A DNA stretch of 64,000 bases from an uncultured Bacteroidales bacterium. GTDB lineage: Bacteria; Bacteroidota; Bacteroidia; Bacteroidales; TTA-H9. Numbering within the stretch: the stretch's first letter is position 1; every line of letters begins with the position of its first letter. Positions 16,481 through 64,000 of this stretch are shown here, one piece after another. The translations under genes were made by a program, and so were the position numbers. The notes beneath the pieces were generated by a model, which was not told the origin of the DNA, did no database searches, and saw only the letters and a list, made by a program, of their open reading frames with translations. The stretch lies in contig CAYUII010000008.1 in NCBI GenBank assembly GCA_964444785.1, positions 44,776 to 108,775 of the forward strand. The letters are read 5' to 3'.

Positions 16481-16520
16481 TTTTATAGCTAAGGTTTTTC
16501 GTTTTATAGCTAAGGTTTTT
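16481..16520. repeat. two identical 19-bp direct repeats (TTTTATAGCTAAGGTTTTT) with a 21-bp period
   Basis: The copies lie at 16481-16499 and 16502-16520, immediately 5' of the 16524-16614 hairpin in the ugd / acyl-CoA synthetase divergent intergenic region. Confidence 0.85.
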
Positions 16521-16523
16521 TTT

Positions 16524-16614
16524 ACCTCTTCGCTTCCCCTTCGCTTCCTCTCCCTATTTGCCCGTTTAAACAGCGAGCAGAAGCGAAGAAGAAGCGAAGG
16601 GGAAGCGGGGAGGT
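16524..16614 (+). repeat. inverted-repeat element copy 1 (24-bp stem, 43-nt interior) built from 11-bp-phased CTTCGCT / AGCGAAG units
   Basis: ACCTCTTCGCTTCCCCTTCGCTTC (16524-16547) pairs with GAAGCGAAGGGGAAGCGGGGAGGT (16591-16614) as 22 Watson-Crick plus 2 T:G pairs. CTTCGCT lies at 16528 and 16539. AGCGAAG lies at 16582 and 16593, with AGCGGGG at 16604. Confidence 0.85.
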
Positions 16615-16837: not shown

Positions 16838-18733
16838 ATGGAGGTAACACGGACCTTCGATTTGTTGGAGCGTTATAGCCGACAATTCGTAAAACCAGAT
16901 GTATTGGCGGGGAAGAAGGATGGCGAATGGATTAGATATAGCTCTAATGACTATCAGGATTATGCCATGAATTTCGCTTGTGGGTTGGTAGTCATGGGTT
17001 ATAGTAAGGGCGATAAGATTGTGACTGTTTCGACTAACCGACCGGAGTGGAATTTTGTTGACATGGGGATGGCTATGGTAGGTGTTATCCATGTTCCAGT
17101 TTATCCAACGATAGGGCCGGAGGAGTATCGGTATATTTTAAATCATTGCGATGCTAAGACAATTTTGATTTCAGATCGATTACTTCTGAATAAGATTAAG
17201 CCAGTATTGGATGATGTTCCAGCTATTACTAAGGTATATACTTTTAATCAGTTAGATGATGAGTTAAACTGGATTGAGATTATAGAGCTTGGAAAGTCGA
17301 AACGAATGGAGTTGCAGGGGGAGGTGAATAAAATTGCCGCCGCGATCAGCCCGAATGATACGGTTACCCTTATCTATACATCAGGAACTACCGGAACACC
17401 AAAAGGGGTTATGTTAACTCATGAGAATTTGGTTTCCAACTTTGTAGCTACTTCAAAGGTTCAACCGTTGAATCATACGCATAGGGTTCTGAGTTTTTTA
17501 CCTTTATGTCATGTATATGAGAGGATGATGAATTATCATTTTCAATATCTTGGCATTAGCATTTACTATGCTGAGAACATGGGGACTATACCTCAAAATT
17601 TAAAAGAGATAAAGGCGGATGGGTTTAATTCGGTTCCTCGATTACTTGAGAAGATATTTGACAAACTGGTAACCACTGGTAAGGATCTTTCAGGCATAAA
17701 GAAGACGATCTTTTTCTGGGCGATGAATCTGGCATTGAATTATAAGTTATCGGGTAGAAGTTGGTGGTATGATTTGCAACATCGGCTGGCTGATAAGCTC
17801 ATCTATTCCAAATGGAGGGATGCTTTAGGTGGTGAGGTGAAGATCATTGTTTCTGGAGGAAGTGCGTTACAGCCTCGCTTAGCGCGATTGTTTTGGGCTG
17901 CCGGAATGAAGGTGATGGAGGGCTATGGGTTGACAGAGACGGCTCCTGTTATTGCTGTCAGTCATGCGGAATATCCTAATTTGAAATTTGGGACTGTTGG
18001 TCCTATTTTGGAGGGGGTACAGGTTACTTTTGATGACGATGGTGAGATCCTTGTGAAGGGGCCTAATGTAATGAAGGGTTATTATAAAGATCCTGAATCT
18101 ACCGCTTTGGTCATTGATGAGCAAGGGTGGTTCCATACGGGTGATGTCGGGGTTCTTGAGGATGGTAAGTTCCTTAGAATCACCGATAGGAAGAAAGAGA
18201 TGTTTAAGCTTTCTGCAGGAAAGTATATTGCCCCACAAGGCATTGAGAATCGATTTAAAGAGTCAATTTTTATAGAGCAGATCATGGTAATTGGCGAAAA
18301 TGAAAAGTTCGCCTCGGCACTAATCTCTCCGAACTTTAACCAACTACATTTTTGGGCTTCTAAGCATAAGATTCATTTTAGAGATAACGAAGAGCTTGTT
18401 AATCATCCCGATGTCATGAAGCGTTATTCCCTCGAGGTGGAAAAGGTGAATAAAAGCCTTGGCGCTCATGAGAACATTAAGCGTTTTAGGTTAGTTTGTG
18501 AGGAGTGGTCTCCTCAGACCGGTGAACTCAGTCCAACCCTTAAGCTTAAAAGAAGTGTAATCATGCGGAAATACGCCGATATCGTTGAGGAGATCTATGG
18601 TCGTGGAAAGGGTAATGATAACCGATCGGCTGGTAAAGGGTTTATGAATATTAATCTCAACCTCAACCTTAAAAAGATCAAGGAGAATATTGAGCATCTG
18701 GTTGATAATAAACCTCGAAGAGATGAAAAATAA
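16838..18733 (+). CDS. long-chain fatty acid-CoA ligase (AMP-forming)
   Basis: It has the AMP-binding signature IYTSGTTGTPKGVMLTHENL, then GYGLTET and the late GWFHTGDVG...ITDRKKEMFKLSAGKYIAP. Confidence 0.85.
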   Translation: MEVTRTFDLLERYSRQFVKPDVLAGKKDGEWIRYSSNDYQDYAMNFACGLVVMGYSKGDKIVTVSTNRPEWNFVDMGMAMVGVIHVPVYPTIGPEEYRYILNHCDAKTILISDRLLLNKIKPVLDDVPAITKVYTFNQLDDELNWIEIIELGKSKRMELQGEVNKIAAAISPNDTVTLIYTSGTTGTPKGVMLTHENLVSNFVATSKVQPLNHTHRVLSFLPLCHVYERMMNYHFQYLGISIYYAENMGTIPQNLKEIKADGFNSVPRLLEKIFDKLVTTGKDLSGIKKTIFFWAMNLALNYKLSGRSWWYDLQHRLADKLIYSKWRDALGGEVKIIVSGGSALQPRLARLFWAAGMKVMEGYGLTETAPVIAVSHAEYPNLKFGTVGPILEGVQVTFDDDGEILVKGPNVMKGYYKDPESTALVIDEQGWFHTGDVGVLEDGKFLRITDRKKEMFKLSAGKYIAPQGIENRFKESIFIEQIMVIGENEKFASALISPNFNQLHFWASKHKIHFRDNEELVNHPDVMKRYSLEVEKVNKSLGAHENIKRFRLVCEEWSPQTGELSPTLKLKRSVIMRKYADIVEEIYGRGKGNDNRSAGKGFMNINLNLNLKKIKENIEHLVDNKPRRDEK

Positions 18734-30964: not shown

Positions 30965-31093
30965 ATGTGTTGTTTATTTGTTTCCTGACCAACTCCCGGC
31001 CAATCGGGTGACATTTAATGCTTAAAACAAATGAATGGCAAAGTTGTTTAGCTCCTCTTTTAAGAATAACCTGAATATCTCTTTTGTAGCATA

Positions 31094-31247
31094 CCTCTTC
31101 GCTCCCTCTCCATATCTTCTTCGCTTCTTCTCTATACTATTGTTAGAATGTAAATATGAAATCAATGAGTAACAACATGGCTTCATCTCTTTTCGAGGTC
31201 ATTTTTTCGTTCAAATAGGGACCATGTATGGAGAGGAAGCGAAGAGG
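31094..31247 (+). repeat. inverted-repeat element copy 2 (22-nt terminal arms enclosing 110 bp)
   Basis: CCTCTTCGCTCCCTCTCCATAT (31094-31115) faces GTATGGAGAGGAAGCGAAGAGG (31226-31247), giving 20 WC pairs, 1 T:G and 1 mismatch. CTTCGCT lies at 31097 and 31119 (22-bp spacing). Confidence 0.85.
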
Positions 31248-31250
31248 ATG

Positions 31251-31358
31251 GGTTTTTGGCGGCTAGCGGTTAGCTTCTGGCTTTTGGCGGCTAGCTTCTG
31301 GCCAGCTGCCAGCCGCCAGAAGCCAGAAGCCAGAAGCCAGTAGCCAGAAGCCAGAAGC
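31251..31358. repeat. about 100-nt GC-rich hairpin whose 3' arm is a (GCCAGAA)6 heptamer tandem repeat, directly 3' of the PKD-like lipoprotein gene
   Basis: nt 31273-31292 pair with 31311-31330 (20 bp, one T:G) around an 18-nt loop containing CAGCTG. Imperfect pairing extends to about 31251/31352. The six heptamer units span 31315-31356, with one GCCAGTA variant. TTTTGGCGGCTAGC is duplicated at 31254 and 31282. Confidence 0.85.
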
Positions 31359-31360
31359 TT

Positions 31361-31744
31361 TTACTTTCCCAGTGCTGGAATCTGAATAGTCTGGCTAGTG
31401 TAATTATCCTTCTTAGAGGCAGTGTCAGTAGCCTTCAGGTTTATGAGATAGGATGCGGGTTGAGAAAGCTTGGGGTAATAAAATGTGGGGTTGACCTCTT
31501 GGCTTTGACTGTTATTGTATCCAAATTTCCAGAGGTATTTTTGGGCTCTTAGACTTGTGTTGGTAAAGACCACTTTCACCTGATTATTCATGTTAATAGC
31601 TTGGTAAGAAAAACCCGCAATGGGGTCGAAAAGGGTCTCAAGATTTTTGTTCCCTTCATCTTTATCTTTAGAGCAGGAGAAAAAGGGAGAAATGAGCAGT
31701 AAAGCTAGGAGAAGAATAATTGGTTTTTGAATTAACTTATTCAT
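31361..31744 (-). CDS. small PKD-domain-like lipoprotein
   Basis: MNKLIQKPIILLLALLLISPFFSC is a lipobox signal. The body has a PKD-like pattern (VVFTNTSLRAQKYLWKFGYNNSQSQEVNPTFYY...YLINLKATD). The track start at 31834 is unlikely. Confidence 0.55.
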   Translation of the reverse strand: MNKLIQKPIILLLALLLISPFFSCSKDKDEGNKNLETLFDPIAGFSYQAINMNNQVKVVFTNTSLRAQKYLWKFGYNNSQSQEVNPTFYYPKLSQPASYLINLKATDTASKKDNYTSQTIQIPALGK

Positions 31745-31818
31745 GGATATTATAATTAGAAAGATAATGCGATATAGCCGCCGTTTCGGCAAAAATAGAT
31801 AAATTGGGAGAATAGCAT

Positions 31819-31826
31819 TACCTTTG
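31819..31826 (+). promoter_or_regulatory. candidate -7 promoter box for the uvrD/pcrA-like helicase gene
   Basis: TACCTTTG matches TAnnTTTG, 24 nt upstream of GTG 31850. Confidence 0.35.
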
Positions 31827-31849
31827 TTTAGCATATATTTATAGAGTAA

Positions 31850-61148: not shown

Positions 61149-61212
61149 GGTGCTTTCTTCTTCTTTTGCAGCACAAAAGTAAAAAATCTGGACTAAAGTA
61201 GATTTTTGTTTG

Positions 61213-61470
61213 CTTGCTCTTCGCTTGCTCTCCCATTCCTCTCCATATAATGAACGGTTAAAGGTGGACTTAATAGGTTGAGATTAGGTGGTATACCTTG
61301 AGGGATAATGCAATTGCATTGATCAAAATTGGTTTTATAAAAACTTACGGAATGGTTGAGTTCCATTTTTTTGGTAACCCAAAGAGATCTTCTCTTCCTT
61401 GATTTAATCAGGATGTTTTTGTATTTATATAGAGAACGAGCGAAGGGCGAGCGAAGGGCGAGCGAAGAGG
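61213..61470 (+). repeat. inverted-repeat element copy 3 (imperfect about 35-nt arms enclosing about 175 bp)
   Basis: The left arm is CTTGCTCTTCGCTTGCTCTCCCATTCCTCTCCATATA. The right arm TATATAGAGAACGAGCGAAGGGCGAGCGAAGGGCGAGCGAAGAGG has AGCGAAG at 61439, 61450 and 61461, an exact 11-bp period. The interior holds a 14-bp perfect palindrome AATGCAATTGCATT (61307-61320) and a small hairpin plus T7 run (about 61349-61373). Confidence 0.8.
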
Positions 61471-61504
61471 TGAGGTTAGATTAGGAGGAAAAAGGATTTT
61501 TGAA

Positions 61505-61684: not shown

Positions 61685-64000
61685 ATGAATTTAAATCAAT
61701 TTACAATTAAAAGTCGTGAAGCTTTAGAATTAGCTACACAGATGGCTGTTAATGGAGGAAATGGGCAGATAGATACCGCCCATTTGTTGTTGGCCTTACA
61801 TAAGGTTGATGATAACGTAATTCCATTTATGGTAGCAAAGCTTGGGGTTAATATTCAGATGATTATTAAACAGGCTGAGGCTATCGTGACGGGTTATCCT
61901 AAGGTGACAGGTGGGGAGGTTTATGCGAGTCGTGATTTGCAACAGGTATTAAATAATGCTGTGCGACTTTTAAGCAAGGGCAACGATGAGTATGTTACTA
62001 CTGGTCATCTGTTTATTGCACTTTCGGAGGGGGATGATTCGACGGGAAAGATGCTAAGAAATAGTGGGGTTCTGAGAAAGGATCTGGAGAAGGCGATGGC
62101 TGAGATAAATCAAGGTGAATCAGTAAAGAGTGCGACTGCCGAGGAGACCTATAATGCGTTAAACAGGTATGCCAGGAATCTGAATGAGTTAGCTTTGAAC
62201 GGGAAACTTGATCCTGTGATAGGTCGGGATGAAGAGATAAGAAGGGTTTTACAGATATTGACGAGAAGGACTAAGAATAACCCGATATTGATTGGTGAAC
62301 CGGGTGTAGGTAAGACGGCAATTGCTGAGGGGATTGCTCATAGAATAGTGAATGGTGATGTTCCAGATAATCTTAAATCGAAGTTGATTTTCTCGCTTGA
62401 TATGGGTTCTTTGGTTGCAGGGGCGAAGTATAAGGGAGAATTTGAAGAGCGGTTAAAGAGTGTAGTAAAAGAGGTGATCTCATCGGATGGAGCCGTAGTC
62501 TTGTTTATTGATGAGATCCATACCCTTGTAGGTGCTGGAGGGGGAGAAGGTGCAATGGATGCGGCCAACATACTTAAACCTGCGCTGGCAAGAGGTGAGC
62601 TTAGAGCAATAGGAGCTACTACCTTGAAGGAGTACCAAAAATTTTTTGAGAAGGACAAGGCATTAGAAAGAAGGTTTCAGATTGTAATGGTAGATGAACC
62701 TGATACCCTTTCAGCTATATCCATATTAAGGGGCTTAAAAGATAGATATGAGGCGCATCATCGGATAAGAATTAGAGATGAAGCAATTGTTGCTGCTGTT
62801 GAGTTATCGCAACGTTACATCACCGATCGATTTCTTCCTGATAAAGCCATCGACTTGGTGGATGAAGCTGCTGCGCGGCTTAGGTTAGAGATGAATAGTC
62901 TGCCTGAAGAGCTCGAGACGATAGAAAGGAAAATTAAACAGTTGGAAATTGAACGAGAGGCCATGATGCGTGAAGGCGACTCTGATCGAATTGGTTTTTT
63001 AAAACATGAATTGGCTAATTTACAGGAGGAGCGTACCAACTTACGTGCTAAATGGCAATCAGAGAAGGAGATTGTTGATAAGATTCAGGTGACGAAAGCG
63101 GCCATTGAGCAAGATAAGTTGAGAGCTGACCAAGCTGAGCGCAATGGTGATTATGGCTTAGTTGCCGAGCTGAGATATGGTAAGATTCGGGCTTCCGAAC
63201 AGAGTCTTATTGTTCTTAAGGAGGAGCTTCTCAAAAGACAGGGAGATTCTCCGATGATTAATGAGGAGATCGGAGCCGAAGAGATTGCAGGGATTGTTTC
63301 AAAGTGGACTGGAATACCGGTTACACGAATGCTTCAGAGTGAGCGAGAGAAGTTATTAAACTTGGAAGCAGAACTTCACAAGCGTGTTGTAGGCCAAGAT
63401 GATGCCATCGTCGCCGTTTCAGATGCGATACGTCGGTCAAGAGCCGGATTGCAGGATGCTAAGAGGCCTATTGGATCGTTCATTTTCTTAGGTAGTACCG
63501 GTGTTGGTAAGACAGAGTTGGCTAAGGCGCTGGCTAGCTTCCTATTTAATGATGAAAATAGCATGGTGAGAATTGACATGTCTGAGTTTCAGGAGCGTCA
63601 TAGCGTTTCAAGACTTATTGGAGCACCTCCGGGTTATGTGGGTTATGATGAGAGTGGTCAGTTAACAGAGGCCGTTCGTAGAAAACCTTATTCTGTGGTC
63701 TTGCTGGATGAAATAGAGAAGGCTCATCCTGATGTCTTTAATATTCTTCTTCAGGTGCTGGATGATGGTCGTTTAACGGATAATAAAGGCCGAGTAGCTG
63801 ATTTTAAGAATACAATAATTATTATGACCTCAAACCTCGGATCGCAGTTGATCCAAGAAAACCTGAGTGTAGATAAAACGCAGTTGGCATCCGTTACGTT
63901 TGAACAGACTCGAAATGAAGTGATGCTCTTATTGAAGAGAACCATGAGGCCTGAGTTCTTAAATCGAATAGATGAGATCATTATGTTTACACCTCTGTCA
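61685..64000 (+). CDS. clpB: ATP-dependent chaperone ClpB, truncated by the window end (first 772 codons)
   Basis: It is absent from the ORF track because there is no stop in the window. My hand translation from ATG 61685 gives [38 protein letters not shown]... NBD1 Walker A is [16 protein letters not shown] coiled-coil M-domain and NBD2 Walker [16 protein letters not shown] follow. The frame stays open to nt 64000. Confidence 0.93.

Follow-up and report, generated by a model that had tools for sequence, protein, structure and literature searches.

Intergenic inverted-array elements on a continuous 11-bp lattice: a dispersed, species-specific family in an uncultured Bacteroidota lineage

Dispersed repeats in bacteria are usually placed into one of a few bins—REP/REPIN sequences, MITEs, or simple tandem repeats—and the CTTCGCT family described here fits none of them. 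MITEs, Correia elements, and REPINs have interiors that are shared among copies, come with target-site duplications (MITEs and Correia elements) or with a RAYT partner (REPINs), and carry arms that are not tandem arrays. Tandem arms are instead known from the Foldback (FB) transposons of Drosophila and other eukaryotes, in which the arms consist of tandem short units, arm length is variable, the middle is unrelated between copies, and the copies are dispersed. Phased arrays with known binders form another point of reference; they include the 11-nt units of the PHO box, the 11-bp iterons of R1 parC, and the opposed, 11-bp-spaced DnaA arrays of E. coli oriC. Two described repeats also touch on the phylum: the BrickBuilt MITE of Porphyromonas gingivalis is strictly intergenic and species-restricted, with 19 copies that include a tandem minisatellite of variable unit number (PMC4596501), and TAACTGA heptamer repeats, intergenic and with a patchy phylogenetic spread, are found in Beggiatoaceae, Cyanobacteria, and a few Bacteroidetes (PMC4679880).

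Here we describe an element found in three copies in the window, by which we mean the whole 64-kb stretch of DNA that was analysed. The first of these, copy 1, is one member of a family of such intergenic inverted-array elements, which is dispersed and species-specific and follows a continuous 11-bp lattice. We know of no described bacterial repeat family built like these inverted 11-bp-grid arrays, and literature searches on the heptamer found nothing useful. We agree with the preliminary description of copy 1, in which it was taken for an unrecognised repeat family that is neither CRISPR, attC, nor a known RNA family; Rfam holds no family for it.

Architecture of the elements and their lattice

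The coordinates of the three copies and of their parts are collected in Table 1. In copy 1, ACCTCTTCGCTTCCCCTTCGCTTC (16524-16547) and GAAGCGAAGGGGAAGCGGGGAGGT (16591-16614) form a stem that contains two T:G positions and encloses 43 nt; CTTCGCT stands at 16528 and 16539, and the 11-nt period holds in both arms. Reading the sequence thus bore out the 24-bp stem, the 43-nt interior, the two T:G positions, and the 11-bp phased units that had been reported earlier, but the pairing extends further than stated: arms of 41 nt are 78% complementary, with 9 nt between them. The heptamer CTTCGCT itself is over-represented, with 21 matches in the 64-kb window against 5.7 expected (0 of 100 shuffles reach 21), and 11 of these 21 matches fall inside the three elements.

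Table 1. Positions of the three elements, of their parts, and of the adjoining array in the window
Feature	Positions	Strand	Description
Element copy 1	16524..16614	.	91 bp = 8 x 11 + 3; most compact member among the loci found
Copy 1 left arm	16524..16556	+	Three lattice cells: ACCT-CTTCGCT, TCCC-CTTCGCT, TCCT-CTCCCTA
Copy 1 subterminal motif	16552..16570	-	Minus-strand reading TTTAAACGGGC-AAATAGGG; part of the right-hand end
Copy 1 right arm	16579..16614	+	AGCGAAG at 16582 and 16593; AGCGGGG at 16604; terminal AGGT
Element copy 2	31093..31248	.	156 bp
Copy 2 left arm	31093-31136		Four cells, CTTCGCT alternating with CTCCATA/CTCTATA
Copy 2 motif	31203-31220		
Copy 2 right arm	31227-31248		
Neighbouring hairpin	31251..31359	.	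7-nt GCCAGAA/TTCTGGC units; separate array family adjoining copy 2
Element copy 3	61204..61471	.	Core 61215-61471 (257 bp) plus one degenerate outer cell
Copy 3 left arm	61204-61247		
Copy 3 motif	61250-61267		
Copy 3 right arm	61428-61471		Three CGAGCGAAGGG cells

Copies 2 and 3 had been placed at 31094-31247 and 61213-61470; both exist, with the bounds corrected to those of Table 1. All three copies run pyrimidine arm first and have the inner cell, in line with the CT-rich-arm-first orientation and the CTCTCC(A/C)TAT inner boundary noted before, and the flanking minus-strand genes are, as named there, UDP-glucose dehydrogenase (ugd), aconitase, and topoisomerase III (topB). The aconitase has its nearest named relatives, about 77% identical, in Cytophagales genera. 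Copies 1 and 3 lie in divergent intergenic regions, with a plus-strand acyl-CoA synthetase gene starting at 16838 and plus-strand clpB at 61685. The GCCAGAA hairpin beside copy 2 is outside the element and is an object of like kind, in which both copy number and sequence vary between strains.

Element ends are organized in rows of 11: ACCT-CTTCGCT is usually outermost, followed by one to four YSYY-CTTCGCT cells and then usually by YCCT-CTCCATA. Each cell joins a 4-nt pyrimidine spacer to the 7-nt core CTTCGCT, and an arm holds 1-5 cells. Inverted ACCT-CTTCGCT terminal cells occur in 17 of 17 aligned elements; the first four bases often deviate from ACCT at one of the two ends. These are inverted arms of tandem subrepeats with variable arm length, as looked for in a foldback-type element. 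At one end per element, a weaker cell ending in TCGCT or similar is followed, in phase, by a subterminal motif of the form TTTnAnYGGaT-AAAwnGG, which starts 22, 33, 44, 55, or 66 nt from the terminus and always at a multiple of 11. The end sequence with the CTCCATA cell and this motif, about 33-60 nt in all, recurs at 21 unrelated loci. Because the motif is present at one end only, the elements are polar; the motif end bears no fixed relation to the adjacent genes.

Two ideas about the motif end were considered and rejected. The element might be read from the motif end toward a downstream gene, which fits the three window copies and fails at locus L138 and at convergent loci. The motif might also be a DnaA box or a Bacteroidota promoter; GGATAAA is found in only 6 of 13 motifs, however, and there is no TAnnTTTG at the right spacing.

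The 11-nt register does not stop at the arms. Across 21 loci the elements measure 91-433 bp, with a single 11-nt lattice throughout: the offset between the purine (R) unit and the pyrimidine (Y) unit, taken modulo 11, has the value 10 at 14 loci, 0 at six, and 9 at the last of the 21, a pattern with a chance probability of about (3/11)^21 = 1e-12. The unique DNA between the inverted arms, 25 bp in copy 1 and 25-367 bp overall, follows the same lattice in its composition, with an A+T content of 0.74-0.76 at lattice positions 0-3 versus 0.45-0.55 at positions 6-7 (chi-square p = 1.9e-14, and p = 3e-6 after a 44-nt trim on each side). Modulus 11 stands far above the others—modulus 12 is weak (p 0.0002-0.01, in the less-trimmed sets) and no other falls below 0.01—and when the lattice offset of each element was randomised, the observed chi-square was never reached (p <= 2e-4). 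In 12 of 13 elements the G/C peak falls within lattice positions 5.4-8.2, matching the central CG of the arm unit, and runs of AAA and TTT tend to begin at positions 0-2 and 10. Autocorrelation of the interiors at lag 11 is weak. The ordinary intergenic DNA of the window lacks the 11-nt compositional signal.

Apart from this shared composition, the interiors have little to do with one another. An all-against-all comparison found only the subterminal motif, about 20-30 nt, in common; interiors match just their own orthologues, where the copies of a MITE would share theirs. Nor do the interiors have secondary structure beyond that of shuffled controls, with z-scores near 0. The interior cells resemble the subterminal cell in degenerate form, as interior cells 1-4 of copy 3 illustrate. 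An onion model, in which the interior consists of decayed arm units, pyrimidine on the left and purine on the right, was rejected since neither the purine profile nor the lattice composition fits it: spacer positions are C/G-rich in the arms and the most A+T-rich positions in the interiors, and the left half is not pyrimidine-rich.

Census, strain variation, and a sibling species

Same-species DNA, matched by exact proteins, was available from the 560-kb JGI metagenome contig 3300048598 Ga0498939_000054, from Logan assemblies, and from NCBI assembly GCA_013573125.1. A metagenome scan with CCTCTTCGCTYSYYCTTCGCT gave 57 loci; the high-GC matches are chance single arrays, and the low-GC matches (GC 0.37-0.44), which originate in several samples and in further contigs of GCA_013573125.1, carry the copy 1-type element. 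After orthologues were merged there were 17 independent elements, including the three window copies, and four more were read separately to give 21 loci. The preliminary description had proposed counting further copies as a check on the family, and the scan supplied them: the family comprises at least 21 loci, the three of the window included. The 21 independent loci are from the same or closely related strains. Each fetched locus held one element only, and a rough guess is that a genome carries a few tens of copies. Outside this species, a scan of a genome collection with CTTCGCTYSYYCTTCGCT used too loose a pattern, so that its hits (at least 117 loci) are mostly due to chance; arrays resembling the family were seen in Chitinophagaceae, Chitinophaga, and Anaerorudis. 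A viral scan found only a direct 12-unit AGCGAAGCACA array on one phage contig.

Both neighbouring genes could be called at 13 loci, of which five are convergent, five tandem, and three divergent, and the convergent-context elements (5/13) lie within 3-31 nt of stop codons. Because elements are found between convergent, tandem, and divergent genes alike, a position 5' of a gene is not family-wide; the earlier observation that the copies sit 5' of minus-strand gene starts holds for the window and fails for the family. The genes beside the elements have no common function.

Strains that are about 98-99% identical overall have unchanged arm cores and differ in spacers and interiors. Between strains the elements differ by 1.2-6.4%, compared with 0.7-1.9% for the surrounding DNA or whole contigs, and the changes avoid the cores. 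Copy 1 has orthologues in strains L153 and L162. Copy 2 is identical in five same-species contigs and has one interior substitution in a sixth. Copy 3, whose unit number differs in strains L164 and L177, provides the sole length change seen, in which one complete 11-nt unit was gained or lost; there were no small indels among about 70 substitutions, a shortfall that is not significant. Contigs of further strain variants end inside arms.

Two stronger interpretations of strain variation were set aside. Interiors diverge 2-7 times as much as the contig average, which would suggest hypermutability; that average is mostly coding, however, and at several loci segments elsewhere have diverged just as much, so the interior is now read as unconstrained in sequence rather than hypermutated. 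Homology between L139 and L171 breaks at the ACCT terminus, as might result from transposase action, but recombination or mis-assembly in the identical 33-nt arm is an equally good explanation.

A sibling species, with aconitase 94%, synthetase about 90%, and topoisomerase III 85% identical, has kept the gene order. All three window copies are missing at its orthologous sites, while the promoter-proximal 85-150 nt beside the genes are conserved; the family thus shows presence/absence polymorphism at orthologous sites, as MITEs do. A search for empty sites, also proposed in the preliminary description, produced no clean one in the sibling because the intergenic cores are not alignable between the two species. 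A profile of the CTTCGCT ends had no match in 78 kb of sibling DNA.

The sibling has other arrays of its own, further 11-nt-lattice families among them. At its aconitase site there is a one-armed array of 8-nt units, present in different copy numbers in different strains; its ugd/synthetase site is either plain (411 bp) or filled with about 1 kb of nested arrays, the units of which are ATAGGGAGAGG (11 nt), a 22-nt unit, CATAAGAGAA, and GCCAGAT/GCCAGAA 7-mers; and its topB/clpB site has a 109-codon ORF in the element's place. The ATAGGGAGAGG element likewise has a continuous 11-nt lattice that runs from a pyrimidine arm through a loop to a purine arm, and it is found at a second locus with the same loop and is present or absent between strains. 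The TAGGGAGAGGA array family belongs to the sibling.

Interpretation and rival explanations

The preliminary description had offered three readings, and the first of these, a MITE-like element with variable cargo, survives in part: the shared termini, the absence from the sibling, and the variable arms agree with it, whereas a target-site duplication and a shared interior are missing and no autonomous partner was seen in the related DNA covered. Target-site duplications were sought in the flanks of 28 element instances (a set of 29 rows, one of which is a chance pair in coding DNA), and no direct repeat adjoins ACCT/AGGT; the edge that lacks ACCT is fuzzy, and a 2-nt duplication is possible there. 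In about 250 kb of related DNA there is neither an array pair 0.5-5 kb apart, as looked for in an autonomous copy, nor a visible transposase. Transposase-mediated mobility with target duplication, as in foldback elements, was accordingly not observed, and the non-homologous interiors are unlike those of ordinary MITEs.

We tentatively favour, at somewhat less than an even chance, a fast-turning-over, putatively mobile foldback/MITE-like element that acts as duplex DNA with phased putative protein-binding cells. The element would function as double-stranded DNA, its cells serving as sites one helical turn apart for a putative sequence-specific protein, and the strong, opposed end sites with weak phased sites between them could support a wrapped or synapsed nucleoprotein complex. 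The family would persist as a selfish, non-autonomous repeat of the foldback/MITE type that comes and goes between sibling species and whose arms lengthen or shorten through slippage of whole 11-bp units; hairpins in RNA or single-stranded DNA would be a by-product of the inverted arrays. Among the three earlier readings, that of phased protein-binding arrays is the best supported, judging from sequence, and has to be widened, for the 11-bp register spans the whole element and not the arms alone. Goryshin, Kil and Reznikoff (1994) reportedly saw the transposition frequency of short transposons oscillate with length at about the helical repeat, and by analogy such a length dependence would fit a synapsis requirement here. 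Several points tell against the favoured explanation. The chief one is that no protein partner, transposase, or autonomous copy turned up in the same 250 kb or so of related DNA and that neither a target duplication nor a clean empty site was seen; in addition, the register is exact even at 433 bp, which is beyond the demands of helical phasing, and the lattice may partly be a relic of 11-nt growth; and the many unit sequences of the sibling make one dedicated binding protein per family hard to picture.

The main rival, which we regard as doubtful, dispenses with a dedicated protein. The elements would be self-generated satellites that grow in place by slippage in 11-nt steps, with template switching making the inverted partner, inner units decaying, and the lattice remaining as a historical trace. 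The exact 11-nt steps in which units are gained or lost between strains agree with this, as do the many unrelated unit types (7, 8, 11, and 22 nt) at shared intergenic hot spots in the lineage, the weak lag-11 autocorrelation of the interiors, and the failure to see a target-site duplication or a transposase. The same ends of about 33-60 nt at 21 unrelated loci would, however, need inter-site copying or strong convergence; the interior cells are not decayed arm units and are phase-locked nevertheless; and neutral decay that erased identity should have scrambled the register too, via small indels. Host operators come to mind from the anatomy of the unit, for the direct-repeat PHO-box units at the sites of Streptomyces PhoP and Bacillus PhoP have the same 7 + 4, 11-bp build. 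Arrays of 2-5 units with seven conserved and four variable positions, conserved cores beside variable spacers and interiors, and window copies upstream of genes could all serve an OmpR/PhoB-type regulator or similar winged-helix factor in controlling neighbour genes. We nonetheless hold this to be improbable: 5 of the 13 classifiable loci are convergent and close to stop codons, the elements are missing upstream of the sibling's ugd, aconitase, and topB/clpB orthologues though the promoter-proximal DNA is conserved, and the neighbour genes, sharing no function, form no coherent, conserved regulon.

A structured RNA, the second of the earlier readings, would work through pairing of the arms as a small RNA, a 5'-UTR element, a bidirectional terminator, or an RNase III target. 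The hairpin of copy 1 is very stable (-62.2 kcal/mol, z = -9.7) and its mismatches are T:G on the plus strand, from which a plus-strand transcript with G:U pairs had been argued; the minus strand, at -61.0 kcal/mol, folds nearly as well, so this argument is without force, and the mismatches vary between strains. A comparison of the two arms for co-variation came out against RNA. Identity between a left arm and the reverse-complemented right arm of its element is 0.63 in the spacer and 0.81 in the core, and with the right arms of other elements it is 0.60 and 0.82; since own arms match no better than foreign ones, the arms do not co-vary and pairing is a by-product of the shared unit. Other expectations of an RNA fare no better: the T-run of copy 1 precedes the stem on the plus strand and becomes an A-run after the stem on the minus strand, so that neither strand has the T-run after the stem of an intrinsic terminator; gene-relative orientation and gene context are mixed; and the 11-nt compositional lattice of the unpaired interior has no RNA rationale. 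Rfam has no match at gathering score in the window or three related loci, only sub-threshold, generic miRNA-hairpin matches (best 39 bits against a threshold of 74). With arms that do not co-vary, unstructured interiors, no Rfam family, and strands that fold alike, the RNA reading is unsupported, and we think it very improbable. Invertible promoters, in which a recombinase would flip the interior between the arms and so switch neighbour genes, deserve hardly any credence. Inverted repeats do enclose unique DNA upstream of some genes, including the polysaccharide gene ugd, but copies between convergent genes are numerous, copy 1 has an interior of just 25 bp, and interior orientation is constant at six loci with 2-6 independent assemblies, each of which shows the majority state only. 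Two further classes differ in build: CRISPR arrays do not match units that are contiguous 11-mers in two inverted arrays without similar-sized unique spacers, and REP/REPIN sequences are short imperfect palindromes, whereas the arms repeat a non-palindromic 11-mer in direct orientation.

A bolder form of the protein-binding idea, which we consider rather unlikely, is that the elements are landing pads for a putative DNA-binding protein that would polymerise on or wrap DNA in 11-bp steps, a new protein-DNA architecture. The two ends would carry strong, opposed anchor arrays, and the interior would be filled with weak phased sites. If true, the landing pads would be a dispersed, fast-evolving counterpart of the DnaA arrays of oriC or of plasmid centromeres, with possible roles in nucleoid architecture, in segregation, or in the synapsis step of a new type of mobile element, and the sibling families with other units would be parallel protein-DNA pairs. 

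Under the favoured explanation, the exact 11-bp register, together with a once-per-turn G/C pulse, is probably the sequence signature of a protein that reads one face of the DNA over 90-430 bp, rather than of an RNA, and it offers a handle on the candidate protein: a defined probe, for example (AGCGAAGNNNN)3, and a predicted phase dependence of function. Whatever their function, short-read assemblies break at the CTTCGCT elements and at the related 7-, 8-, 11-, and 22-nt arrays, all of them hot spots of strain variation in this uncultured Bacteroidota lineage.

Comparison with known systems

In anatomy, FB transposons come closest to the CTTCGCT elements, which likewise have inverted arms of tandem units, variable arm length, an unrelated middle, and dispersed copies. 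FB transposons are, however, eukaryotic and kilobase-scale, with target-site duplications and a known transposase, whereas the CTTCGCT elements measure 91-433 bp and show no duplication. To our knowledge, a lattice rule for the whole element has not been described for FB transposons. Bacterial MITEs, Correia elements, and REPINs resemble the family in being short, non-coding, dispersed, and intergenic, with inverted ends and a presence that varies among relatives.

The phased operator and centromere arrays are alike in their 7+4 or 9+2 unit, 11-bp period, and 2-5 sites, and oriC is alike in having two facing arrays with strong outer and weak phased inner sites. These arrays are single conserved loci, however, while the CTTCGCT family has at least 20 copies and another core and is not kept in the sibling; the comparisons with OmpR/PhoB sites, oriC DnaA arrays, and R1 parC are analogies, not memberships.

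BrickBuilt is the closest described element in the phylum and shares with the family a Bacteroidota host, an intergenic site, species restriction, and variable tandem units, but its repeats are direct, 23 nt long, and internal, with a unique leader on one side, a unique tail on the other, and inverted ends that are small (PMC4596501). In the CTTCGCT elements it is the arms, in inverted orientation, that are made of tandem units, repeated with a period of 11 nt around a unique interior. Cyanobacterial STRR and TAACTGA arrays resemble the neighbouring GCCAGAA hairpin; they consist of 7-nt direct repeats that follow one another without a gap, mostly a short way ahead of start codons, rather than of inverted 11-nt arrays that enclose a phased interior (PMC4679880). 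Inverted 11-nt arrays that enclose a unique, phase-locked interior are seen in none of the families compared here; in kind, the CTTCGCT family belongs with the dispersed inverted-repeat elements.

Repeats adjoining the window copies

The loop-free GCCAGAA/TTCTGGC hairpin that adjoins copy 2 (the CTTCGCT element at 31093-31248) is the stretch that varies most among contigs of the same species—the differences comprise an additional 14 nt, or two units, together with point changes within units. Unlike this hairpin, copy 2 itself is nearly constant among the same contigs. The hairpin is directly preceded by the stop codon of a 157-codon ORF (31361-31834). Arrays of GCCAGAT/GCTAGAA resembling it are present in the sibling species, which has the same gene order as the window (L127, 9530-9650), and a similar array adjoins another CTTCGCT element, in L178. 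Beside copy 1 (16524-16614) lies a 19-nt perfect direct repeat; in strain L153, which carries an orthologous copy 1, two identical changes are found in both copies of the repeat, giving TTTTTAGCTATGG.

Repeats and arrays beside the CTTCGCT elements and at other loci
Feature	Locus and positions	Source or setting
19-nt perfect direct repeat TTTTATAGCTAAGGTTTTT, two copies, 21-nt spacing	window 16481-16520	directly left of copy 1
GCCAGAA/TTCTGGC hairpin, 7-nt units, no loop	window 31251-31359	adjoins copy 2
Nested arrays, ~1 kb in total	L127 8900-9660; L121 12480-13000	sibling species
One-armed 8-nt array GCTTCCCC/GCCTCCCC	L121 9810-9850; L123 9750-9850	sibling, site of copy 2
Short hairpin ..TTCGCT(A/T)(T/C)CTATCGAAGCGG(T/G)AGCGAAG..	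L132 1390-1460; L151 3545-3615	different organism, GC 0.44
Dispersed repeat GTCATTCTGAGTGAGCC..AGCCCTGAGCG.AGCGAAGGGGAAGCGAAGAATC, paired with its own complement	L059, L084, L110, L113	one Planctomycetota MAG
11-nt-phased CTTCGCT array	L086 7054-7160	Anaerorudis cellulosivorans
11-nt-phased CTTCGCT array	L009 3099-3162	Chitinophagaceae
11-nt-phased CTTCGCT array	L013 2971-3030	Chitinophaga
12 contiguous direct copies of AGCGAAGCACA	L194 6095-6222	phage contig, IMG/VR, 95 kb

Sibling arrays and contig breaks

The nested arrays of the sibling run from pyrimidine to purine arrays. Within them CCTCAACATCT/ATAGGGAGAGG occurs eight times and a 22-nt unit three times, alongside CATAAGAGAA and 7-mers. 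This composite is polymorphic between sibling strains, being present in one and missing from another (L126); downstream of aconitase in L121 the element recurs with an identical loop, at a point where that assembly has a run of N. The 8-nt array at the copy 2 site differs in copy number between two sibling strains.

Arrays of this kind break assemblies, since several independent short-read contigs end inside them: four sibling contigs (L128-L131) have their position 1 inside the GCCAGAT array, 394 bp 5' of the synthetase gene, and a contig outside this group (L247, also at position 1) begins inside the right arm of copy 1. L139 (2700) and L171 (181) match each other over an entire element of 433 bp and for more than 8 kb to its right; their left flanks are unrelated, and homology stops precisely at the ACCT terminus of the element. 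Possible explanations for this break are that the sequence was rearranged at this end of the element, that identical arms recombined, or that the contigs were mis-assembled.

Similar arrays in other organisms and a phage

CTTCGCT arrays with 11-nt phasing are also found in further Bacteroidota. Anaerorudis has 4 pyrimidine units opposite 5 AGCGAA(G/C) units, with an offset between the arms of 10 mod 11, as in the window family; in the Chitinophagaceae contig a loop of only 6 nt separates the two arms of a tight hairpin, which makes the offset 2. The short hairpin of L132 and L151, which is followed by three phased AGCGAAG units, may represent a related compact family. The Planctomycetota dispersed repeat is unrelated to the CTTCGCT family, and was matched in the scan only because two AGCGAAG units lie within it. 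The phage array is identical to the window element in its 7-nt core and 11-nt period; however, it consists of direct copies without an inverted partner.
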